Shown: positions 8,999 through 34,200 of the stretch, one piece after another
How positions within the stretch are numbered: position 1 is the stretch's first letter
Layout: each line of letters begins with the position of its first letter
IMG/VR virus record: IMGVR_UViG_3300031998_000072
Location: 3,428-67,427 of that record
From: a virus
Lineage: Duplodnaviria; Caudoviricetes
Strand: one strand, 5' to 3'
Length of the DNA stretch: 64,000 nt
The notes under the pieces: generated by a model
The model's input: the letters and a program-made list of their open reading frames with translations, nothing else
Told to the model about the DNA's origin: nothing
Database searches by the model: none
Program-made: the position numbers and the translations under genes

Positions 8999-11900
8999 TT
9001 AGAAACCTCGTGACATAGAGAGTTGCCTCTGAGTCTGTCTGTAAATGTCGATACGAGACAGAGCCTTCGGCGAGTAGTTGTTTTGTGTGAAATTATAGAC
9101 GTTTTGCCATCTATCTTTCATGAAAGGATTGAGCTCAGAATCCTTATTGATGTAATCACCAATAGCTGCATTCTGTGCTGCTGAAAGTGAAGACATTACA
9201 ATACCATTTGCCTTGTTTGCATCAGATGCAAGTTTATCAAGGTCGAATGTGGGAGTAAGGTCTGCTTTATTCTTTTCCAAATTCTTTTTAAGATCTTTAG
9301 CTTCATTAACTGCTTTGTTCTTATCGTCTTTAAGATTATTTTTGTTTTTACCTGTGTTGAAATTCCAAGTATTAAGTTTCGGATCACTAGGAAGTCTACT
9401 TGTTACATCCTTCCAGAAATTCTTTAAACCATCAGCAATACTTGTTTTTGATTTCTTTCCGTTAATGCCCAACTGTTTGATAGCTGCTTCATAATCGGCT
9501 TCAAATTGTTTGGAACTAAGTGTTCCATCTTGTGCCATCTTAGCCGTTGTATTTTTAACAATGGCATCCAATTGAGCTTTAAGATTATTAACTTTAGCAT
9601 TTTGTTGCTCTAGATCTTTCTTAGATTGAATATATTCTTTATAGTTACTTGAATTAACTTGGCCTGTTTCAGCCTTATGTTGCCAATCAGCAGCATTGGC
9701 TTCCATTTTAGCACGTTTGTCAAGTTCTTTCTCAAGAGCAGCTGTTATCTCTTTCTGAGAAGCTTCGTAAGCATCTACTTCAGCTTTCATTATTGCAACA
9801 GATTTCTCTAAGCTGCTTGCTTCGAGTTTCTTTTGCTGCTTTTGTCTGGCAAACATAAGAGCAACCATTTTCTTTGATTCCTCTTCTGCTTGCTCTTCAG
9901 ACATTCCTCTATATTTCAATTCATTCTTAATAATTTCTTGAGCTTGAGATTTAGATTTTCCTACTAATTGCTTCTTTTTATCTTCAGCAACATCAACAAG
10001 AAGACTATTAGTTTTAAGTTGCTGTTCCAAAGCCATCATGGAAGCTTCCTCTTCTGTAGAAAGAACTTCACTCCAACTACGAGTTGTAGCCGCTTCCAAT
10101 GACTGAATTGAAGACCATAATATTTGTTCTTTATCTCTTTGAACACCAAATAAATAATCTACTATCTTTTGTGTTTCTTCCAATCTAGCATCTTCATCAT
10201 TAAGTCCAAGTTCTTGAGCCTGATGATAAGCAAGATTATCAATATAAATTCTTGCCTGTTGTTCCGATAGTCCAAGTAATGCATCTTTTTGCTTAAGAAT
10301 TTCTTCAGTCAACGCCTTATGGAATGATACTTCCTTTTCTTCTCCACTACCGTATTCTGTGTATTTTATACCTTCATAAGTATTAAGGCCTTTTCTAGTA
10401 TCTAGTTCGACACCTACCTTTTTATATGCATCTTCTATTGTTTTAGAACCAGTTATTGTTTCTTTTATAAGCTTTTTATTATTGCTATTCATCACATTAA
10501 CTAATTCTTTTCCACCATTAGAAAGAGCATTTTTAGCACCAAGGATATAATTCCAATAAATATTATAAGACTTTTTAGAAGGAGAGTGTTCGTCAAGATC
10601 AACTTTAGCTCCTGCAATTAATCCGTCATTTGCTTTAGATTGAACATCGACCAATGCATCTTCCATTCCTGCAAGACCATCTACAGCACCTTGTTTATAA
10701 TTCTCTGTTATTTCTTTAGAACCTTCATATGCTTTTTTGCTAGCTTCTTTAACATTCTTTTCGAGATTCTTATCAAAGAAACTTAAACCAACATCAGCAT
10801 TTTCGGCATTTTCGTCCCAAACATTTTTCCAACCAGTAACTATACTTCCAAATGAATTTGAAGCAGTATCTTCCAAACCTTTTACAACATTTCCAAGATT
10901 ATCTGATATTCCTTTAGCCCAATCCCATCCAAATGTTTGATATAAAAGATCGGCCCAACCAGCTATTGGCTGAGTTAAAAGTTTAGTAGCTTGCGCCGCT
11001 AACCATGCTACAATTCCGAGTAAACTTCTTGCTAGCGTAAGACCAAACTGTATCATTATACGGCCAAGTTTTTCAAAACCATCTACAAGAACTTGTTCTA
11101 ATCCCTTCATAGAGAAAAGATCTTCCATCTTATAGCTGTCTTGAACTTCTCCGGTCCATCTCTTCCAAGCGCCTCTAAGCGCTATTACAGCAGTTGTAAT
11201 AGCTGCTACAGCAAGAGCTATTGCTCCAAGAGATGCGCAGACATTTCCAGCAGTTGAAGAAAATGCACCGCCTGTTTTAGAGAACGATGCAAATATTCCT
11301 TGGCCTTCTTTTGCTAATTTGACATTTGTTTTAAGATATCCAGATAAATTCTTAAAAGCAGTAGAAACATTTTCTACAGTGTCTTTTGAATTCTTAAAAC
11401 CAGTTACTAAAGTATTGTAATTACTTATTGTTTTAAGAATATTAGGAACAACATATTTTCCAAGAACTGTTGCTATTCCTAAACCGCCAATCCATTTAGA
11501 AACGTCCGCTTCTTTAAAGAAACCTTCTCCATCTTTATCAAAGAAAGCATTTAAAGCAGCAGTAACTTCGGTTGCTATAAAATCAACAGCTTCTTTAATA
11601 ATTTTTGCAATATCATCTTTTCTTGACTTAAGAATTCCTACAACTTTTCCTGCAATATCTATAACAAGATTTACAAATTTCTCAGCAACTTGATTATATG
11701 TTTCGCCTACCGAAATTACTTGATTAACAAAACCAGTTATGAAAGAAGTAAATACTGTTCCTGCCGATTGGCCAATATTATAAAATAATTTCTTAAGTTC
11801 TGGTAATGCATCACTAATTACTTTAGCTATATAAGTTAACTTACTAACAATTTTTCCTGAGGTTTTGTCAGCATCAGAATTAGAAATATCAACTGCGTTT

Positions 11901-18821: not shown

Positions 18822-20621
18822 TCAGCCCTGATTCTGAACAGACTTCTCGAGAACGATTGCAGAATAAGGCTTTGTAAGAGCACCTGAGCAACGTGTCTCG
18901 ATGAGATACTTCTGCTGGTTGTAGTCGATATCGAAGTCATCGAACATGCTGATAGCGCCACCCTTATCTGCACCAACATTATAGTCGTTAAGGTTGACGA
19001 TAATACCCATAAGAGTATTTGTATAAGTATTTCCACTCTTTGTAACCTGTCTTGTAAGGTTCTCCATTACAGGAACAGTAACAATCTTAGAAACGCGCAT
19101 TGCTGTAGCAACTTCAGCCTCAGTCTTATAAAGCTTGTGACCGATAGAGTCCTCAAGGAGGAGAATATCAGTAAGGTTGTCCTCTGTTGTGAAGAGAACA
19201 GGGTTGCCAGAACCTCTATAATCCTTTCTAGCCTTAATTGCTGCCTTAATGAAGTTCTTAGCTGTAGCATCGTCATCAGCACCAACTGTAACTTCCTTCT
19301 TGAGGCAGAAGAGATCAGCTTCCTTCCAGATAGGACGGATGTTGTCTTCATTGATCTTGTCATCATCAGAAGCAAGTCTTCCATCACCAACGAGAATAGC
19401 ACGAGCAATTTCCTCGTCGAGCATAACTCTCATCTCTGCCTTGATCCAAGCAACTACATCGAAATCCGTAATGTCGATAATGTCATCACGATCGAGCTTC
19501 TGCTTCTTATAGATTGTTGTAGGGGTTGTTGTTCTCTTAAGCAGTGAGAATACTTCCTCTTTCTTCAGGTTGCCCTTAATGTAACCCTTAGCCCTTGCTT
19601 CATCCTCAGTGATATCAGCAAACATGGACTTAATTCTTGAGAAAGGTGACTTATGAACTCCGCTCATGACTGTGGAGACCCACTCCATCTTTCTGGAAAT
19701 GAACTCGGGCTTATCTGTAAAGGTCTTAGCCTCAGGGAACAGCCAGTCAATGTCTTTAATACCATAATCATCAGCATGAGCAAGGAAAGAATCTCTAAGA
19801 GATCCGAACTTCTTACCATCATTGATGATGGTCTCGATCTGAGAATGTGTGAGCTCAGCCTGATCTGCAGCGCCCGTGTACTCTTCAGAATTGTCAAATA
19901 CGTTGTGCTTCATTTCTTTTTCTCCTTCATCTTCTGTTTCTTTTTCGCCACCCTTTTCGGCAGCAACTCCAACAAGGTACATCATTACCTTCTTCTGTTC
20001 TTCGTTCATTGTATCAATGACATCCTGAACAGTCTTTTCCTTTGCGCCAGAATCTTCGGCCATCTTCTTTTCCTCCTGTTTATCTTCGGATTCAGCGTGC
20101 TCAATAACTTCTTCATTTTCTTCCTCGGAATGCTCAATAGAATCCTCAACGTCTTCTGTTTCACCTCCAAGATTGTCGATGAAGTCATCGTTGTAGATAA
20201 CCGCCTCATCTGATTCACCATCTTCGCCATGAGCCATAGCAATATTGTCAATCATAGCTCCAGGATTTGCTCCTGCAATTACAAGACTGACTTCTCTGAT
20301 GGCGCCATGAAGAACATCACCAGACTTCTGCACAAGCTTATTAGCATAGATAGAAAGCTGGTTTACATCACCATGGAGGACAAGCTGCTTTGCCTGCTTA
20401 GCAGGTTCTGTCTCATTAAATGAGCAGTAAGCATACATTCCATCAGATTTCTCTTCAAGAAGTGCATGACCCAAAACATTCATCGGATCTCCATGCTGGT
20501 GCTGCCATACGAGAGGAACAACCTTTCCATTGCATTCCTTAAATGCACCTGCTCTGATAGTTCTACCATCCGAACACTTAAGATCATTCCTAGTGGCATA
20601 ACCACTAAAATCGTACTTCAT
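18822..20621 (-). CDS. prohead protease - major capsid protein fusion (HK97 fold)
   Basis: N-terminal protease (FSGYATRNDLKCSDGR...VPLVWQH...EVSLVIAGANPGA), acidic linker, C-terminal capsid domain (FDDFDIDYNQQKYLIETRCSGAL). Confidence 0.9.
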   Translation of the reverse strand: MKYDFSGYATRNDLKCSDGRTIRAGAFKECNGKVVPLVWQHQHGDPMNVLGHALLEEKSDGMYAYCSFNETEPAKQAKQLVLHGDVNQLSIYANKLVQKSGDVLHGAIREVSLVIAGANPGAMIDNIAMAHGEDGESDEAVIYNDDFIDNLGGETEDVEDSIEHSEEENEEVIEHAESEDKQEEKKMAEDSGAKEKTVQDVIDTMNEEQKKVMMYLVGVAAEKGGEKETEDEGEKEMKHNVFDNSEEYTGAADQAELTHSQIETIINDGKKFGSLRDSFLAHADDYGIKDIDWLFPEAKTFTDKPEFISRKMEWVSTVMSGVHKSPFSRIKSMFADITEDEARAKGYIKGNLKKEEVFSLLKRTTTPTTIYKKQKLDRDDIIDITDFDVVAWIKAEMRVMLDEEIARAILVGDGRLASDDDKINEDNIRPIWKEADLFCLKKEVTVGADDDATAKNFIKAAIKARKDYRGSGNPVLFTTEDNLTDILLLEDSIGHKLYKTEAEVATAMRVSKIVTVPVMENLTRQVTKSGNTYTNTLMGIIVNLNDYNVGADKGGAISMFDDFDIDYNQQKYLIETRCSGALTKPYSAIVLEKSVQNQG

Positions 20622-20647: not shown

Positions 20648-21913
20648 TTAAATTTGATTAATCGGAGTATTTCCAATAGAGTCGTCATTACCTGTAACAA
20701 CAGGATTGCTACCCGCCTCTTCTGGAGATTGATTAATATTCTTATTACTTAACTCATTAGCTCTCTGATCATTAACCGGCTTGTAACCAATAATACCTCT
20801 AACTTCGTTTGAAGAAAGAATCGCATTACGAGTAAACTTGTCAGCAATGTCGGCTATCTTATCTGTAGGAGTCATACTAAATGGATTACTAAAGAACATA
20901 ATAGCCTGATTCTGTGATCGAGCCGTCTTAGTTAAGAATTTTCTAGACATTTCTTCAATAATAGCTGAAACAATTGGCTCAATTGTTCTAGATTGGTAAT
21001 TCAACATCTCTTCAGGAGAAGCAGTACCGTCGAATACACCTTTTGTCATACCAAGCTGATTATAGAGCATTTCAGTAAGATACTGTATCTGATTAAACAT
21101 TGTATTCTCTACAGATCGATTCAGCTGTGTTATATGTTCTGTACCATCTGTATATGCAATACCATATTTAGAATTAGATAACTGTTCCTCAATGTCTTTA
21201 CGTCTACGTTCTGCTTGTTCTCTTCTAGCTTCAGTCTTTATTACATAAGGCAAACCAAGAATAAGATCAAGTTTGCCTGAGCCTGACTGTTCATCGACAG
21301 CATCAAGAAGATTTAACTTTCTAATAAGTCGCTTTGCTACTGAATTCGGTTCATTCATTACTGAATAAAGAGGATTTTCAATCAGAGCGACCATCTTTTT
21401 AGGAAGTATCTTTTCTTCATGCTTACCAGTTCTATCATTGTAAAGTTTTACCTTTACATGCTGTGGAAACCATTCAACAACACTACCAACTCTCATCGTC
21501 TGAATGTCATATGATCCAGTTTTAAGAGGATTTAGTGTAGTGTCTACCGGAACAATTACAACGCATCCTTCATCAAACATTGACATAACAACATCCTGAA
21601 TAAAAGCACGAGATGTTTGGTCAATATTTGCTTCTGTTGTAAGAGCATAATTAAGACCAGATTTAATTGTATCAACATAATGACCGTTTGCATCTGTTTT
21701 AACATGCTCTATATCAAGCTTTGCTACATCAATAGCAATTCGAGTATAGATAGCTGTTACAATTGTCTTTTCTGTTCCACGGGTCGGACGAAACATATCT
21801 GGTCGTCTAGTATTACTAGGACCAAGATCTATATAACGTTTATCCTCCGTAGGATCTTTGTTCATGAAGGCATTCCAAGAGTGCTTGAGCCTTTCACCAA
21901 AAGTCAATCCCAT
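20648..21913 (-). CDS. portal protein (HK97 family)
   Basis: SIVTAIY.RIAIDVA-like motif, KLDLILGLPY, NEVRGIIG; located upstream of the capsid gene. Confidence 0.9.
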   Translation of the reverse strand: MGLTFGERLKHSWNAFMNKDPTEDKRYIDLGPSNTRRPDMFRPTRGTEKTIVTAIYTRIAIDVAKLDIEHVKTDANGHYVDTIKSGLNYALTTEANIDQTSRAFIQDVVMSMFDEGCVVIVPVDTTLNPLKTGSYDIQTMRVGSVVEWFPQHVKVKLYNDRTGKHEEKILPKKMVALIENPLYSVMNEPNSVAKRLIRKLNLLDAVDEQSGSGKLDLILGLPYVIKTEARREQAERRRKDIEEQLSNSKYGIAYTDGTEHITQLNRSVENTMFNQIQYLTEMLYNQLGMTKGVFDGTASPEEMLNYQSRTIEPIVSAIIEEMSRKFLTKTARSQNQAIMFFSNPFSMTPTDKIADIADKFTRNAILSSNEVRGIIGYKPVNDQRANELSNKNINQSPEEAGSNPVVTGNDDSIGNTPINQI

Positions 21914-21919
21914 TTTGAA

Positions 21920-23050
21920 TTACCTTCCTTTATTTTTCTTTTTAACACTTGCTGGCAAATAACCTGCAATATTATTTGAATTTTTTCCTAATAAATCATT
22001 TAAAGCCTCATTTACTCCTGCTTTAACACCTTTTTCAGCTTCAGTCATTAATGTTCCTGTATGCGATTTTACTGTATTTACCGCAGCAGTGTATAATTTG
22101 TCTGCTGCTTTATTTCCAGAATTTGTTAATCTATTATAGAAATCTCTATTTATGTCATCTGAACTTCTAATTTTTGATGCATTAGAATCTTGAGATGCTG
22201 TACTTTTTTTAACTTCCCACTGTTGCCCTTTTATACCAGTTCCACTTGGTTTAGTTGACGATTCTTTTACATCATTTTTATTTCCACCAAACATTTTTTC
22301 AGCTCTTTCTTTTACATCTTTTAAATGTTTCTCCTGATATGCAACATTAGTTTTTAGTTCTCTTTCAGCAGCTTGAGAATTAAAATTACGAGCTTGAGCT
22401 TTTGTTAATGCAATATCTGCGGTCTTCTTTTCTATATCGAGTTTATTATCTTTATTTTCGAAAGCTTTTGAAACAACACTTTTAGTAATATCCGGTAAAG
22501 TTTTAACGGCCAAATCAGCAACAAATTTACCAGTTGGACCTTCAAAGAATCTATCAGCTCTAGCTAATGCACCATTTGGATTTGAAGCAAGTGCATACTG
22601 TTTATTATATTCGGCTTGTAATTTAAGACGATCGATTGCTCTTTGAAGTTCATCGTCAGACATGTTTTTTGTTTTTCCAAAACCATGTCCACCTGGTCTT
22701 CCTTGCCTATCTAATTTAGCATTTTCTTTTTTATTAAGTCTATCAAACTTTCCTTGCTCTTTTCTAGCAAGTCTCATTGTTTTAGCATTTTCTTTAATGC
22801 CATGTCTTTCTTCCTTAGCAGATCTAGTAGCTTTTTCTTTTTTTGCTCTAGATTTTAAATCTGCTTTGTACTTCTGTGTGTTATAAGAGATTTTTGCTTT
22901 TGACCGTTCATCTCCATAACCATAATGTTCTCTACCTTCTGGCGTTAGAGAACCATCTTCGTTTTGAAACCGACGATGCCCCCATCTTTGTCCAGGTATT
23001 CCCCAATGGTATAGCTCGTCATCGAAGACATAATTTGGCTGTTTACTCAT
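21920..23050 (-). CDS. HWG/KWG-tag (DUF7211-like) protein, Lys-rich, putative internal virion protein
   Basis: ELYHWGIPGQRWGHRRFQNEDGSLTPEG; KNMSDDELQRAIDRLKL. Confidence 0.7.
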   Translation of the reverse strand: MSKQPNYVFDDELYHWGIPGQRWGHRRFQNEDGSLTPEGREHYGYGDERSKAKISYNTQKYKADLKSRAKKEKATRSAKEERHGIKENAKTMRLARKEQGKFDRLNKKENAKLDRQGRPGGHGFGKTKNMSDDELQRAIDRLKLQAEYNKQYALASNPNGALARADRFFEGPTGKFVADLAVKTLPDITKSVVSKAFENKDNKLDIEKKTADIALTKAQARNFNSQAAERELKTNVAYQEKHLKDVKERAEKMFGGNKNDVKESSTKPSGTGIKGQQWEVKKSTASQDSNASKIRSSDDINRDFYNRLTNSGNKAADKLYTAAVNTVKSHTGTLMTEAEKGVKAGVNEALNDLLGKNSNNIAGYLPASVKKKNKGR

Positions 23051-23068: not shown

Positions 23069-23296
23069 TTATAATATAGGAGCATTAAAAAATCTATTAG
23101 TATCCTCTGCTATATTATACTTTCTTACTTGTCCATTATTCTTGCCTACAAGATAAAATGGATCTATTTCTTTATTTGGAGTATCTGTTTCAAATGCTAC
23201 AAATAAATAGTCTTTTCCATAATCTCTGCATTCTTTTACTGTCTTTATTGTTGGTAATTCTTTCTTTAATTTATTAAGTGCTTCTTCTTTAGTCAT
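23069..23296 (-). CDS. putative immunity protein for the adjacent papain-fold toxin
   Basis: 75 aa, directly downstream of the toxin; DPFYLVGKNNGQV resembles Imm35/YrhB-type motifs. Confidence 0.45.
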   Translation of the reverse strand: MTKEEALNKLKKELPTIKTVKECRDYGKDYLFVAFETDTPNKEIDPFYLVGKNNGQVRKYNIAEDTNRFFNAPIL

Positions 23297-23307
23297 AATA
23301 TTTCTCC

Positions 23308-24510
23308 TTATTTATACTTATTTACTGTAGACATTGAAATTCCAAGAAGTTTTGCAACCTCTTTTTGTGTTTTTCCAGAAGATATCAACGATTTTATTCT
23401 AGATTGCTTAGCTTCAGTTAGTATCATATTCTTAGAATCTTTTTTCTTATCTTCTTTAAAATCATACCACTTATTCTTAAACCTTCCTTCACTTTCCCAT
23501 TTATTTTGAAGTGCTATTGATGCTTGATCGTCTATTTCTTTTATTTTCTTTGAATACATACCATTAGCTATTCTTTGGCCAATTGCAATTCCAGCAAAAG
23601 GCATTCCAGTAACAGAGGTCAGTAACGCCGCACTTATTCCAATTACCCATGGTTCAACTTTAGCAGCTTTTAATTTTGCTGAATTATATTTTATATCACC
23701 TATTACATCCTCTGAATAAAATTTCTTTGCTTTTTCTTCATCAATCTTTAAATTATCAGATCTTAATGTTTCAACATTATTTGCATTCTTCATTGTTTGA
23801 TTAAAGAATTTTTTATCTGCTTTTACTATAGTACCTGGTTGCGAATCAACAAAATAAAGTTGGCCATTTTTAACTTCATAATTAAATATATGACCTCCGT
23901 TTCCGCCCTTCCAATCAACAGCAATAAAACCTCTAGTATTATCGCCATCGCTTAATAATTTATTAGTCATGTCATTATATTCATCTTTTGTCATACCAAT
24001 ACTCATCATTTTTGAACTTTCATTACTTCTAGTAGCAAAAGTTCTTGCATCTTTTGAAATTTTAGCATAATTTGGTATAACTCTTCCATATGCGCCTTTA
24101 GGATTTGATAGATATGCTTGAGCTCCTCTTAGTGATTCTTGCGCTCTTACATCATGCCCTCTTCTTCTAAGTTCATATGACATTGTACAAAAAGCACAAT
24201 TTACATTTCTATTCAAACCATATTCAAAACCTTTATTACCACCATTTACTTTTTGTATATCTTTTTGTATATCTTTAACAAACGCTTTATCGCCTTTTAT
24301 AGTACCGCCGGTTTTATATCCATAACCGCTAGATTCTTCAGATCTTCCAAATATTCTATCATCCCCAATTCTTCTACGGCGTTTTCCTTCCTCGGTATAG
24401 GTTCCATCTTCGAATTGGTATCTTCTTTCTCCCCACTTCTGGCCAGGGATGCCATAATGGATTAAATAAGTAGGATAATCAGACATTAATTTATTCCTCC
24501 TTAATTCCAA
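23308..24510 (-). CDS. DUF7211-tagged papain-fold (Tox-PL / Gln deamidase-like) toxin with C-terminal HTH (likely start 24486)
   Basis: YLIHYGIPGQKWG tag; NCAFCTMSYELRRRGHDVRA (Cys), GGHIFN (His), YFVDSQ (Asp); C-terminal GKTQKEVAKLLGISMSTVNKYK. Confidence 0.75.
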   Translation of the reverse strand: MELRRNKLMSDYPTYLIHYGIPGQKWGERRYQFEDGTYTEEGKRRRRIGDDRIFGRSEESSGYGYKTGGTIKGDKAFVKDIQKDIQKVNGGNKGFEYGLNRNVNCAFCTMSYELRRRGHDVRAQESLRGAQAYLSNPKGAYGRVIPNYAKISKDARTFATRSNESSKMMSIGMTKDEYNDMTNKLLSDGDNTRGFIAVDWKGGNGGHIFNYEVKNGQLYFVDSQPGTIVKADKKFFNQTMKNANNVETLRSDNLKIDEEKAKKFYSEDVIGDIKYNSAKLKAAKVEPWVIGISAALLTSVTGMPFAGIAIGQRIANGMYSKKIKEIDDQASIALQNKWESEGRFKNKWYDFKEDKKKDSKNMILTEAKQSRIKSLISSGKTQKEVAKLLGISMSTVNKYK

Positions 24511-25103
24511 TCACTTTTCCATTTTTTCTGATGTAACTTTTTATTCTTTACATCATATGAATAATCTATCTGATTATATTTGCTTGGTTTATCAAGTTCT
24601 GAATTAAAATCTCCAACTTCCCATAGTATATAATTTAAGGAATTCATATGCACGTCCATATATCTTTGAACCACTTTTTGCGCTTCTTCTCCAGTATCTC
24701 CATTTACTAATTTATTCGCGGTCGCCAATGAAGTATTTACATATTTTTTAATATCGTTAATTGGATTCTTTCCTTCTTTTCTTTTGCTAGCTGCATTTGA
24801 ATCATGATATTCAGTTGGATTTTTATCATTAAAATCAAATCTTTTACTAGCTCTAATATTTTCTTTAACTGAATTATACTTAGAAACCCTACTGCGATTC
24901 CCAAATGGATCTGTTTCTTTCTCAAATTTTTCGAGTTTCTTTTTATACTTGTCAGATTTTTCTGATTTATCTAAGAGATTAGCATACCTTTTTATACCTT
25001 CTGGTGTAAGTGTCCCATCCTCATTCTGAAAACGTCTTACACCCCATTTTTGACCCTGAATGCCATAATGTATAAGATATGAATGGTAATTCGATTCACT
25101 CAT
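24501..25103 (-). CDS. DUF7211-tagged protein
   Basis: YLIHYGIQGQKWGVRRFQNEDGTLTPEG. Confidence 0.7.
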   Translation of the reverse strand: MSESNYHSYLIHYGIQGQKWGVRRFQNEDGTLTPEGIKRYANLLDKSEKSDKYKKKLEKFEKETDPFGNRSRVSKYNSVKENIRASKRFDFNDKNPTEYHDSNAASKRKEGKNPINDIKKYVNTSLATANKLVNGDTGEEAQKVVQRYMDVHMNSLNYILWEVGDFNSELDKPSKYNQIDYSYDVKNKKLHQKKWKSDWN

Positions 25104-26848
25104 ACAAATGCCTCCCTATTAGCTTTATAAGCAACATAAGCATCCATTAATGCTGCGACATTATCGATTTTCTCGTCATGTCTTTGCTTAAAGAGCTTTC
25201 TGTTACCATTCGTATCTTCTAGCGTTATACAATTTCCCATTGTATAACTCATAATTTCTTGGTCGAAAATGAGCAATCTTTCTTCTGAAAGTTTCTTAAT
25301 TTCACCAAGAGGAACTGATTCTGTTCTAGCACCTTGTATAACTTTGGTCACTCCGAATGCTCCATTTTCTGCAGACCATCGTTCTACAAATCCTTGGGCA
25401 TTGTAAGGGTCAAATCCAAAACATCTTACATCATATGAACTATCATCAATAAACTTGTCAAGATCATCATAAACTTCCATCATGTCGAGAACTGTGCCCT
25501 CAAGTATTATAAGAGTTCCTTCATCAATAAACTCTTCATACTTAAGTCTAAGTGCTGCTGGAAGTTTACTAAGTGTTAGAGATGTTATATAACTTCTTGC
25601 CTTAATCCCAAATCGCTCTCTACTAAGAGGAAATAGAAAAGTAAATGCACAGAAGTCATCACCCTGTGAAAGGTCCGCTCCAAGTGCACATGGAAGATTC
25701 CAAAATTCCTGCTTTCTATGAGGCTTTGTCTCCTCGTAAGTGAAGAAGTATGTATAACCCTCCATAGGAATGTTAAATCTCTTTGCAAGAATGTCGTTTC
25801 TTGTCGATGGTGCCTGTTCGGCTCTCTCAACATCTAACTGATAGGTCTCATATGTAACCGTCTTACCAAGATTCGGATTAGCCTTAATCCACATCGAAGG
25901 GTCATTTATCTCCTTAATGTCATCAAGGGTATAATACCAAATCGATACATGCGGATTTACATATTGGCCTTTAAGAATGTCAAGCAATTCCATTTTGATG
26001 GTATCTCCAGGACCATTTCTTACCGTACCTTCTGAAGAGGTCGCAATAATGAGATAATCATCTAACTTCGAAGCGCCTTGCTCGATACAACCAATAACAT
26101 CTTCCTTAATATCTCCAGAAAGCCACTCGTCAACTGTAGCAATCTTACATCTCAAACCCTGCAATTTATCGATCGACATAGGTCTGATTTCAAGAATAGA
26201 GTTTGTAAGAAAGTTTTCAATACCTTTCTTTGTAGAAGCCAGCTTTTGACGATTTGCTTTAGAGCCTGTAGTATTTTGAAGTGAACCTTCAGTAAGAAAC
26301 TTAAACAAAGGTCCACGCGAACGCGCGATAGAAGTTCTAAACGGTGACATAACTTCTTCTGCCTGCTTCATTGTCGGCGCTACTGTAATCTGATGTGTAG
26401 TTGAAGTATCCACGCAAAGATAGAATGCCTGAATACAATAGTCATACATTGATTTTGCAGCACCTCTTGGAATTATTAGATACTGCTTATTTGTTAAGCG
26501 CTTCTTAATCATCTTCTTTTCGTAGTGGCCCTTAACTCCATTTGCAGGATCAGGCGGAATATAAACACTACGTTCTACAAAGTAATACCAACAGAATACT
26601 TGTTCTGCCCAGAGCTTAAATGTATCTAAGAGATGGAGATCATCTCCGTTTGTAAGTGTAAGTTCATTCTCACAATATTTTACAAATCCATCCATTGCGT
26701 GTTCGTCATAGTAAACGCCAGGATTTCTTATAAGATCGTCAATTCTATTCATCTCCATTGAGATATATCGATTGACTGCTATTTCTCCTCTCATTACAGC
26801 AGCTCTAAATTCACCGTAATATTTAGGAGTCGCTGTATTGGATAACAT
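25100..26848 (-). CDS. terL: terminase large subunit
   Basis: Walker A-like IIPRGAAKS, Walker B ATVDEW, nuclease GADLSQGDDF and KIDNVAALMDA. Confidence 0.93.
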   Translation of the reverse strand: MLSNTATPKYYGEFRAAVMRGEIAVNRYISMEMNRIDDLIRNPGVYYDEHAMDGFVKYCENELTLTNGDDLHLLDTFKLWAEQVFCWYYFVERSVYIPPDPANGVKGHYEKKMIKKRLTNKQYLIIPRGAAKSMYDYCIQAFYLCVDTSTTHQITVAPTMKQAEEVMSPFRTSIARSRGPLFKFLTEGSLQNTTGSKANRQKLASTKKGIENFLTNSILEIRPMSIDKLQGLRCKIATVDEWLSGDIKEDVIGCIEQGASKLDDYLIIATSSEGTVRNGPGDTIKMELLDILKGQYVNPHVSIWYYTLDDIKEINDPSMWIKANPNLGKTVTYETYQLDVERAEQAPSTRNDILAKRFNIPMEGYTYFFTYEETKPHRKQEFWNLPCALGADLSQGDDFCAFTFLFPLSRERFGIKARSYITSLTLSKLPAALRLKYEEFIDEGTLIILEGTVLDMMEVYDDLDKFIDDSSYDVRCFGFDPYNAQGFVERWSAENGAFGVTKVIQGARTESVPLGEIKKLSEERLLIFDQEIMSYTMGNCITLEDTNGNRKLFKQRHDEKIDNVAALMDAYVAYKANREAFV

Positions 26849-27189
26849 TATTCTTGCTCCTCACTTTGTCCATTATAACTACGCATAGCTGCAATAGCTC
26901 CTGCGTAAAGTTCATCAATTCTTTCCTGAGATTCAATAGCAGAGGTTTTAGCAACTACGAGTTTCTTCTGCTCTTCAAGAATCTCTTTCTCAAGTTTTTC
27001 CTTACTCGAACCAAGTTTTAAATAATGTGTAATAACTTGACTCGAAGCTGTTCCATTTCTAAGTTGTTGTTCCGCGAGATCGATAGCCAAAGATATCAGT
27101 TGGTTTTCCCTCGCTTCAGGTGTCATGACAGGAGGACTTTTAATCTCAGGCTGATCGTCAGGAACTTTGTTAATGTTTCTTCTTGCCAT
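26848..27189 (-). CDS. putative terminase small subunit
   Basis: Helical, 113 aa, coupled to TerL; TPEARENQLISLA.DLAEQQL..GTASSQVITHYLKLGS. Confidence 0.55.
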   Translation of the reverse strand: MARRNINKVPDDQPEIKSPPVMTPEARENQLISLAIDLAEQQLRNGTASSQVITHYLKLGSSKEKLEKEILEEQKKLVVAKTSAIESQERIDELYAGAIAAMRSYNGQSEEQE

Positions 27190-31263: not shown

Positions 31264-34200
31264 TTACTTATACTTATTGACAGTTGAGGTTGAAATACCA
31301 AGGAGCTCTGCTACTTCTGTCTGTGTGTGTCCTGCAGCAAGTAGGGCTTTGATTCTCGACTGCCTAGCTGGTGTAATGCTAATCTCTTCAATTGGAGTTG
31401 CATACTTTGTAACAGTATCCAAATCTGTGTTGTCAAGTATTTCTTTTAACACGGACTTCCTTATGGCTCCTGCCTGTATCGCTTCCCATTCTCTTGGAGA
31501 GATTGTAATAGTCTGTTTCTTAGCACCAACCATTAATCTAGCTCCAGAAATGGCTTGATTAGCATATTTCTTTTTCTTTTCTTTGTCTTCTTTGATTGAA
31601 GGATCATCTTGCATCTTCTGTTTAAGAATAATATTAGCTAAAGCTGTTGCTTTTCTTTCAGCAGGTTTGTTAATCAATGCTGTTTTAAGACTCTTCTTAA
31701 GAGAATCAACTTCTGGCTTATACTTTAAAGCTGCTGCTTCATTATAAGGCTGATCTTCAACTTCAAGACTTGCTTTTCTTGCCTTATTTGCAAGAGCTTT
31801 AAGTTGATTGGCATAATTTGCATATGTTCTTTCAACTTCTGTTCCAATATGATCAGGACCAGATAACAATTCTCTTGCATCTTTAGCTTCTGCCATCTTA
31901 GTAGACTTAATAGTTCTTCTTTCTTGAGTCCACATCGGCTTTCCATTCTCATCGAGAACAGGAACTTTCTCACCTTTAACTGTTTTCATTACAGGTTTAT
32001 TGTAATATTCTTCAGTTTCAATATAGCGTTTTTCTCCTGTTTCTGGATCGATAGCACCACCTTCTGATTGTCTAGCCAATCTTCTAGTGTTAACTATTTG
32101 TGGAGACTTAGCTCTTGAAATTATTGTTTCAGCTCCGCCACCTTGTTGGTACTTATCTTTTAATGCTTGAATGCCGTTTTCAATATACGATCTACGAATA
32201 TCAAGGTTATGTTTTTCAGCATCAATAACTACCATTGAATGCTTAACTGCTCTAACAATTTCACTATTTGAAGCACCAAACTGCTGCATGTCAGTTATCA
32301 AGTTTGTTACTTTGCCCATTTCAATTTGGCAAGTTTGATGCTTAGGCTTTGGGGTTCCATCAGGTTTAGCATAAATTCCTGTATCAAAGTCTTTCAAACT
32401 AGCAAATGCAGGAAGAGTATTATCAATCCATTTAATCTCTTTATTATTGTTTGGAATAACAATTACTGTATCACCATCAAAGTCAGCACCAGACAACTGA
32501 TTTGCAACATGTTTATTAATCATGACAGCATCTCTTGGACTAGTACCAATTATTGATTGGCATTCTTTATTTGAGTTATTAACAATAAGATGAGGAATTT
32601 CAAACTTTCCTCCATGAGGATATCTAACAAGAACTACTTCTTCGCCATCTTTAAAATTAGGAGCATAAATCTCATTATCTTTCAAAGTAACAGAAGGAAT
32701 GATAACAGATGTAGCTTGTCTAGGAAGCGCTGCCGCTTTCAATCTTACTGCATCTGAATCGCACTTTTCTGCAAATGGCTCTAATAATCTTTTCTTAACT
32801 GCTGGATTTGTAAGTTGATTAATTCTTTCAAATTGATCTTCCTTAAGTTTAAATGCTTCATCAAGCTGTCTTTTTACAAGAGGATTAGGTTGCTTAGCTA
32901 AGAATTCTGAAGCAAGTGACTTTTGCCATTTAGACCAGTCGCCTTCTTCATTTACTTTATTAATACAACTAAGTTTCTTTTCTCCAGTATGAATATCAAT
33001 ATACTCATGCTGTCCACCAGCAAGCAGTTTAGAATCAGCTTCATCAGAACCAAGTTCTTCTGAAAGCTTAACCGATGCACCAAATGGATTATCTTTGTCA
33101 ACTGTTCCTGTTATCTTTCCAGTTTCAGGATCTTGTGAAAGACCTTTCATCAACTTAAGATGTTCAAGCTTATCTGTGTATTTACCAACAGACTCATGCT
33201 TTGAATTGACAATAATATCAATACCTTTAGGAACATCTTTAAAAGCATCTGCATTATATACAGCCATGCCTTTAATATATCTAGTTCCATCAACTGCAAT
33301 ACGAACCTGAGCATATGTTGAATTCTGCAACGACAAATCCTGAACTCCAGGACGAAGCTCAATAAGACCATCTCTTTCAAGACCGCCATGAGCTCCATCA
33401 CGAATATAAATTCTATCAGAATTAATAGATTCAGGAGTTCTTATACCAAGCCAAGTCTTACCATTATCAATAGAATGATACTCACCAAGAGTTTCAAGCT
33501 TGTTATCCTCAAGTACAGCTTTAACAGCTTCACTGTAAGTTGTTCCAGGAGGACATAAAACCTGAATTGATGTCTTTTGGCCAGGTAATTGTACTTGTTT
33601 AGCAGAAATATACTTAAGTTCATATCCTTGATCTTTTAAAGCAGCAATTGCAGTATTGAGTCTGGTTCTTGTAACACCAGCTAATAGCTCAGCAGATTTA
33701 CCAACATCAATGAATTGCTTTTGATCAACGGCTTCTTTGAGCATCTTAGTAGTATTATCAATTGCTTCTGCTTTCTCTCTAGCATTTGGAGCTAACAGAT
33801 TTCTAACAGTAGACTCTTTTGATTTGTCGCCAAACATCTTTTCTGCAATTGCAGTATTAGACATTCCTTTCTCATGAAGCTTAAGTGCTGTATTGATCTC
33901 ATTTTGCTTCTTAGCTTTAAGAGATACGGAATTTCTAGCTCTTAACTCATCAACAGTCATTTCTTTAGGCTGAAGCTTTCCATTTTCATCTAATTTAGGA
34001 ATTCGGTCACCCTTTTTGATTCCTAACTCAGGATTATCTTTTTCAGCAACAGTCATTTTATAACTATTCTTTGGAGTTAACATCTTTGCTATCTCTTTTG
34101 GAGTATAGCCTTGGCCTCTAAGTTTTGCTACTTCATCACAAAACCAAGGTTCTCTATCATATTCGTTGTCTCCATAATCAAAACCAGCAAACCAATCCTC

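Follow-up and report, generated by a model that had tools for sequence, protein, structure and literature searches.

The window analysed here is a 64-kb stretch of the 67,427-bp record IMGVR_UViG_3300031998_000072, a rumen phage genome rated 100% complete, and every gene of the window lies on the minus strand. Two consecutive genes are the subject of this analysis. The first (23308-24486) encodes a 392-aa protein in the order DUF7211 tag, papain-fold Tox-PL1 core, hydrophobic hairpin and helix-turn-helix (HTH), as delimited by Pfam, an alignment of homologues and a structural model; it is called the toxin below. The second (23069-23296) encodes a free-standing PepSY-like protein of 75 aa with an alpha-beta4-alpha layout, recognized through its homologues, a family profile and a model, which is a candidate inhibitor of the first and is called the partner. 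On comparative grounds, both genes form a unit that travels together while the delivery end and the genomic position change.

The toxin open reading frame (ORF) is open from a TTG at 24510 (400 aa), and the gene is taken as the 392-aa form because homologues begin at the ATG at 24486. The original prediction had placed this ORF (23308-24510, minus strand) among the Tox-PL/glutamine-deamidase toxins from the motifs NCAFC, GGHIFN and FVDSQ. All three motifs were found in it and the family was confirmed, since PF15644 (Gln_amidase, 'papain fold toxin 1') matched with 43.7 bits against a cut-off of 24.1 (E = 6.5e-11), aligning residues 104-226 of the 400-aa ORF with profile positions 2-113 of 114; the six-frame search of the genome gave 45.8 bits. 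Tox-PL1 is defined by the signature NC-H-DxQ (Zhang et al. 2012, PMC3482391). This signature is complete in the toxin, where the catalytic candidates are N96 (24199-24201), C97 (24196-24198), H199 (23890-23892), D214 (23845-23847) and Q216 (23839-23841). NCAFC covers N96 and C97 through C100, GGHIFN contains H199, and FVDSQ contains both D214 and Q216. The signature runs through an alignment of 26 toxin homologues, in which H199 and Q216 are invariant and N96, C97, C100 and D214 are conserved at 90% or more.

The papain-fold Tox-PL1 core extends over residues 64-262 (23701-24297), as supported by PF15644, the model and the fold matches. The AlphaFold (AF2) model has a mean pLDDT (predicted local distance difference test) of 76.7, with blocks of the core mostly at 85-97; in it helix 97-108 begins with C97, and H199 and D214 lie on neighbouring strands. 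Comparison of this model with 48,161 PDB chains by VIA-align gave as nearest folds SpvD (Z 10.3; 152 aa, root-mean-square deviation (rmsd) 3.5), YopQ (Z 8.8) and OspI (Z 8.1), followed at lower ranks by C39 peptidases, AvrPphB (Z 6.7) and staphopain (Z 6.6). Foldseek against PDB returned no match at E ≤ 0.001 for either the toxin or the partner model; in the PDB sequence search the toxin profile matched HTHs only and the partner matched nothing. A close relative of the toxin with a characterized function was looked for, and none turned up. A published classification groups PF15644 beside OspI, a glutamine deamidase, and considers that members may be 'a releasing peptidase or a poison' (PMC10318531). 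The assignment to the papain-like Tox-PL1 family and fold is settled, and the predicted cysteine hydrolase may be either a protease or a glutamine deamidase. OspI from Shigella and SpvD from Salmonella, the nearest solved folds, are type III effectors with Cys-His-Asp hydrolase sites, which are delivered into the target cell and modify one host protein; injected delivery of the phage enzyme is a proposal. They differ from it in sequence (10-13% identity), in their eukaryotic targets and in being delivered by a secretion system rather than by a virion.

The original prediction also described a 75-aa ORF immediately downstream of the toxin, and this gene is well supported. It starts 11 nt past the toxin stop, is preceded by an AAGGAG Shine-Dalgarno site and has 14 close homologues with 64-75% identity. 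A profile search of 1.84 billion representatives yielded 63 family clusters, nearly all free-standing and of 72-117 aa, whose consensus includes DY..Y.F and DPFY.V.K.TG. Two descriptions of the family were used, a narrow partner profile (A2) and a broad partner-family alignment and hidden Markov model (HMM), A3, in which the near-invariant columns are A6, D45 and P46. The partner ORF itself was unmatched in Pfam, PHROGs and NCBIfam, and the last two yielded no functional name.

The expected identity as an Imm35/YrhB immunity protein (PF15567) did not hold. Neither the partner ORF (at E ≤ 1) nor any of the six frames of the genome (at E ≤ 10) matched this family, which is also absent from the 25 listed of 27 Pfam families matched by 60 partner-family members. 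Imm35 is linked to Tox-PL1, although it also neighbours Ntox40 (table in PMC3482391), and it has been proposed as a peptidase inhibitor. The partner resembles it in being a small alpha+beta protein beside Tox-PL1; however, apart from giving no HMM match, it has no conserved Trp in A3 and lacks the conserved W and [ST] of Imm35 (Table 3 in PMC3482391), having DPFY..K.TG as its core instead. In a language-model search Imm35 was the nearest annotated cluster, with an Atlas score of 0.76, which is at chance level. A very remote relation between both families may still exist.

The similarity points rather to PepSY (PF03413), which was matched by 20 of the 60 partner-family members (best E = 1.3e-5) and weakly (E = 0.06) by the C-terminus of P0026, a homologue described below. 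The partner model (pLDDT 77.6) consists of a helix (residues 3-13) and a four-stranded antiparallel sheet (19-26, 30-36, 47-51 and 57-60) followed by another helix. Its top folds were YpmB (Z 6.7; 59 aa, rmsd 2.4), CD1622 (Z 6.5) and the C-terminal part of YpeB (Z 6.3), and the vibriolysin propeptide reached Z 5.0. The partner is read as PepSY-like because these modest fold scores agree with the PepSY HMM matches of its family, and the whole family is read, from sequence and models, as a divergent, unnamed cytoplasmic branch of PepSY-like proteins. The helix and four-stranded sheet are shared with the PepSY domains of YpeB, YpmB and the M4 protease propeptides, about a third of the family matches the HMM, and the association of PepSY domains with protease inhibition parallels the role of candidate inhibitor. 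Known PepSY domains, however, are extracytoplasmic, often in tandem and linked to metalloproteases, whereas the partner would be a lone domain in the cytoplasm whose counterpart is a cysteine hydrolase.

The linkage between both genes was studied through the genomic context of IMG/VR and JGI loci. Among partner-anchored loci, all four informative ones (L087, L088, L089 and L090) have a Tox-PL1 gene ending just upstream of the partner; two more (L091 and L092) were left out of the count as both are cut at the contig end. A second set was anchored on the large terminase (TerL) and comprised 80 related IMG/VR loci plus the phage of the window itself (L001), 81 in total. Tox-PL1 was present in two of them, L001 and L050, and the partner family in the same two only (A3 HMM, E = 3e-29 and 1.4e-8, respectively). 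The small ORF of L050 was not significant by hhalign with the narrow profile A2, although it was with the wider A3. No orphan partner was found in the 78 TerL loci without toxin. The L050 toxin has a different, untagged N-terminus; in this protein (L050 3944-4999) the motif KY[RK]YFY[TS].EEY..YL, repeated twice, replaces the DUF7211 tag.

Moreover, Acutalibacter phage Fontainebleau encodes a fusion of a minor capsid protein (MuF-like; PF06152, E = 3e-103) with Tox-PL1, and the 78-aa ORF that follows it aligns full-length with the partner family (hhalign 76%, E = 2e-5). In P0026 (440 aa) the toxin and a partner-like domain occur in one polypeptide, which might also come from read-through or a sequencing artefact. 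In 10 of the 14 partner homologues the longest contig is equal in length to that of a toxin homologue. Partner relatives thus far described lie directly downstream of Tox-PL1 genes with three different N-terminal parts, and the two genes stay adjacent in at least four toxin architectures and at two positions in the genome. The partner-anchored loci, the absence of orphans, the Fontainebleau pair and the P0026 fusion are the reasons to consider the pair as a unit. Hence, the toxin-immunity cassette that had been predicted stands as far as the small ORF is a conserved and specific partner of the toxin, and does not stand for its identity as Imm35/YrhB.

Some other arrangements were observed in these loci. 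In L087 (1-4163) TerL is preceded by a toxin pair and two tagged ORFs. In L089 (125-4175) the toxin pair comes right after a small terminase-like gene, and no TerL stands ahead of the portal gene. P0084 (268 aa) carries a partner-like domain N-terminal to a DUF7211-tagged protein, again with read-through or a sequencing artefact as possible origins. Tox-PL1 genes are also found in mycobacteriophages, with relatives annotated as 'VIP2-like toxin'; 94 phage records match overall. In Mycobacterium phage SororFago (gp2-gp3, L083 1039-2402) the Tox-PL1 gene is followed by a 105-aa ORF which has only P.(I/Y).V.K.TG in common with the partner family. The shared motif spans 16 columns, and gp3 was not counted as a partner.

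The remaining modules of the toxin are a tag at its N-terminus and a hydrophobic segment and HTH towards its C-terminus; the tag and the HTH were not listed with the toxin in the original prediction. The DUF7211 tag and its conserved extension occupy residues 2-41 (24364-24483), with the pattern YLIHYGIPGQKWGERRYQ..DGTYTEEG..RRRIG, and were delimited with PF23847 and the columns of the toxin alignment. The PF23847 (DUF7211) match to the toxin (21.4 bits, E = 1.7e-4) is below the cut-off of 27; the tag motif HYG..GQ.WG.R is invariant across the alignment, and the toxin tag has 71% identity with that of gp200 and 56% with that of gp376, two neighbouring gene products. The tag region has low pLDDT in the model. 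DUF7211 and its motif were not mentioned in the literature searched.

A hydrophobic helix had been predicted after the catalytic residues, and a Gly-rich hydrophobic segment does occupy residues 277-311 (23554-23658), although it is modelled as two helices with a break at TGMPFA. Its best 19-residue Kyte-Doolittle mean is 1.67, and from the model it is probably a membrane hairpin. It is present in most homologues, though variable. The C-terminal HTH (residues 356-392, 23311-23421) is 70% identical to the last 37 residues (31267-31377) of the putative 1010-aa RNA polymerase of the phage, and no third copy occurs in the window. Most homologues retain all modules; P0018-P0020 are devoid of the HTH, and P0025 and P0026 of both hairpin and HTH. 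In P0034 and P0047, the tag and the HTH are kept around middle parts unrelated to the enzyme. The enzyme can therefore be seen as one interchangeable insert between constant ends, which agrees with the swapping of domains among relatives that the original prediction proposed to look for, and the HTH as a second portable module, since HTHs related to those of the toxin and the RNA polymerase end these other tagged proteins with different middles.

Concerning the setting, the location in the head module was correctly predicted, as terminase, portal and capsid genes adjoin. Upstream of the toxin are a small terminase-like gene (26848-27189), TerL (25100-26848; Pfam scan and IMG/VR homologues), which is the left border of the island, and gp200 (24501-25103), a DUF7211-tagged gene of the same cargo island (PF23847, 27.3 bits for a cut-off of 27). 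After the partner come gp376 (21920-23050), a Lys-rich DUF7211-tagged product that is the most conserved member of the island and lies beside the portal gene, the portal protein itself (20648-21913; Pfam scan), which is the right border, and a 599-aa S78 prohead protease fused to the major capsid protein (18822-20621). Promoter and terminator scans across this stretch gave signals no better than chance, and the intergenic spacing is 11-18 nt with strong Shine-Dalgarno sites. For these reasons the stretch reads as a single late operon to which both toxin and partner would belong. Neither PF00589 nor PF00239 was matched in the complete 67.4-kb record, so no integrase or resolvase of these types was found (other recombinase types were not searched), and the phage appears to be virulent.

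The TerL sequence is shared at 75-79% identity by more than 568 IMG/VR contigs, and at 70-77% by cultured actinophages (Streptomyces and Arthrobacter phages; L084 and L085). This striking conservation across host phyla adjoins a hypervariable gap: the distance between TerL and portal genes in relatives ranges from 14 bp to 4,214 bp, with 0-8 ORFs falling into 50 clusters, mostly DUF7211-tagged. Given this variability of the gap, the locus is not invariant among relatives, which would have refuted the original prediction, and its content does get swapped. DUF7211-tagged genes are found in most relatives, as well as in Streptomyces phage ClubPenguin (gp7-9) and Arthrobacter phage Nason (gp9).

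Pairs of a tagged ORF and a small untagged ORF recur in this gap, with 428 aa plus 66 aa in L019, L021, L022 and L045 (e.g. L021 9756-11254) and with 160-179 aa plus 67 aa in L026, L027, L032 and L039 (e.g. L026 9697-10444). Their only Pfam domain is the tag, and they may be further effector-partner cassettes. The gap of L046 contains an HNH/NUMOD homing endonuclease (10233-10754), a possible driver of cassette exchange. ClubPenguin gp7 (L084 5024-5704) is DUF7211-tagged, annotated as 'peptidase' and contains the HExxH-like motif HESAH; possibly a further type of enzyme is carried on the tag here. Furthermore, orf7 of Lactococcus phage 1706 (L093 2501-3889), annotated as 'structural protein', has two internal DUF7211-like motifs, HRGVIGMRWG and HKGVKGMKWG, which is a hint that tagged proteins could be virion components.

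The explanation favoured here, with somewhat better than even confidence, is that the toxin is an injected, capsid-loaded cysteine hydrolase held inactive in the producing cell by its PepSY-like partner. Both genes would constitute a cassette, one interchangeable unit of the DUF7211-tagged island between terminase and portal. The enzyme would be made late together with the partner, which most likely binds it and blocks its activity where virions are made. The tag would probably load the enzyme, like other tagged proteins, into the capsid, so that it could enter the next host with the DNA and free of the partner, and act there on a host protein for takeover or counter-defence. The hairpin and the HTH may direct it to the membrane and/or to the phage DNA as this comes in, beside the RNA polymerase. 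Packaging is indirectly supported because the tag marks head-module genes across the lineage and because of the tag-like motifs in orf7 of phage 1706. The internal proteins and Alt of phage T4 have capsid-targeting sequences, in which a short N-terminal peptide is common to unrelated proteins that are packaged and injected. DUF7211 is likewise a short N-terminal peptide across unrelated proteins, its packaging function and cleavage being putative, and it has no sequence similarity to the T4 sequences.

Several features weigh against this explanation. The fold scores of the partner are modest (Z below 7), in a range where common folds score too, and its own sequence has no Pfam match. The partner (64-75% identity) is better conserved than the toxin (51-80% over the whole length), unlike fast-evolving immunity proteins. 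In addition, a virulent phage has a less evident need of an antidote, and one would not ordinarily expect a hairpin and an HTH in an injected toxin.

A bolder and tentative version of the same idea can also be formulated. DUF7211 could define a phage polymorphic effector system distinct from MuF, in which the tag loads interchangeable enzymes, a new class of cytoplasmic PepSY-like 'safety catch' is shed when the enzyme unfolds for ejection, and the hydrolase is brought to the entering genome by the HTH that it has in common with the virion RNA polymerase, disabling a host defence or nucleoid protein there.

It is rather doubtful that the enzyme works instead as a processing (releasing) peptidase, cutting back the DUF7211 tag or maturing cargo packaged alongside it (the RNA polymerase, for instance), with the PepSY-like protein as a propeptide-like chaperone or inhibitor in trans. 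For MuF contexts, Zhang et al. 2012 (PMC3482391) suggested a possible role of Tox-PL1 in protein processing in assembly or release, protease propeptides contain PepSY, as in the vibriolysin propeptide mentioned above, and the same HTH is found on the toxin and the putative RNA polymerase. Nevertheless, a general maturase should be less sporadic than an enzyme present in 2 of 81 loci (one of them from the phage of the window) when tagged genes occur in most relatives, and the capsid protein already carries a fused S78 prohead protease. The suggestion of a protease maturing the tagged cargo, also made in the original prediction, is thus disfavoured. Since the enzyme is too sporadic and a head protease already exists, it is taken here as an accessory effector and not as a core assembly factor.

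A classical polymorphic toxin of a temperate phage, where particles released by lysogens poison competitors and the small gene gives immunity to the lysogen, is decidedly unlikely. A head module with a small downstream ORF is the layout of MuF toxins (Jamet et al. 2017, PMC5576092), and Fontainebleau has the toxin fused to a MuF-like minor capsid protein. However, no tyrosine or serine recombinase was found in a record rated complete, and both genes read as part of a late operon in which promoter and terminator signals are at chance level, so a silent prophage would not be expected to express the immunity gene. Since no integrase or resolvase was detected, it is unlikely that the antidote serves to protect lysogens; a 'safety catch' acting while virions are produced agrees better with this result.

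Phages of Gram-positive hosts commonly have papain-fold enzymes that act on the cell wall, and one pseudomurein endoisopeptidase appeared among the fold matches (Z 6.1), which would agree with an NlpC/P60- or CHAP-like cell-wall hydrolase that is associated with the virion, anchored through the hydrophobic segment, and aids DNA entry. This is very improbable, as the Pfam family and the best folds are those of effectors that act in the cytoplasm (OspI and SpvD) and not NlpC/P60, the Pfam scan found no cell-wall-binding domain, and a cytoplasmic inhibitor would be superfluous. It is just as hard to believe that the genes are mere neighbours and that the 75-aa protein does something that does not concern the enzyme: its unusually high conservation would suit this, but the adjacency over several toxin architectures and both genomic positions, the natural fusion and the absence of orphans do not.

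Regarding the capsid-loaded effector favoured here, part of the system has precedents. MuF-fused Tox-PL1 in the head modules of phages and immunity of the peptidase-inhibitor type (Imm35) were described in 2012 (PMC3482391), and MuF toxins with small downstream ORFs in 2017 (PMC5576092). The toxin shares with Tox-PL1 polymorphic toxins, including prophage MuF-Tox-PL1 fusions, the HMM family, the NC-H-DxQ signature and the papain fold, and with MuF-Tox-PL1 systems the terminase, portal and capsid neighbourhood and a small gene directly downstream (PMC3482391). It differs from them in its N-terminus, which is a DUF7211 tag of 25-40 residues, and in its extra hairpin and HTH; no MuF or minor capsid protein 2 domain was detected in the Pfam scan of the toxin, which agrees with the non-MuF system of the original prediction. 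The phage also appears to be virulent and the partner is not Imm35. MuF polymorphic toxins likewise present a variable toxin in the packaging and head module, with a small ORF (<150 aa) next to it and exchange of modules (PMC5576092). The island of the window has a different carrier domain, several independent tagged genes versus one long MuF protein, and no integrase found. New here are the DUF7211 carrier, the unnamed PepSY-like partner family, the hairpin, the shared HTH and the apparently virulent lifestyle.

Phage toxin modules have so far been described mainly as MuF fusions of temperate phages. In this case a different tag that has not been studied carries the Tox-PL1 family, the phage appears to be virulent, and its relatives freely reshuffle the island. 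If the proposed explanation is true, the concept of injected phage effectors would become wider, and the PepSY fold, known mainly outside the cytoplasm and with metalloproteases, would gain a role as a cytoplasmic inhibitor of a cysteine hydrolase.

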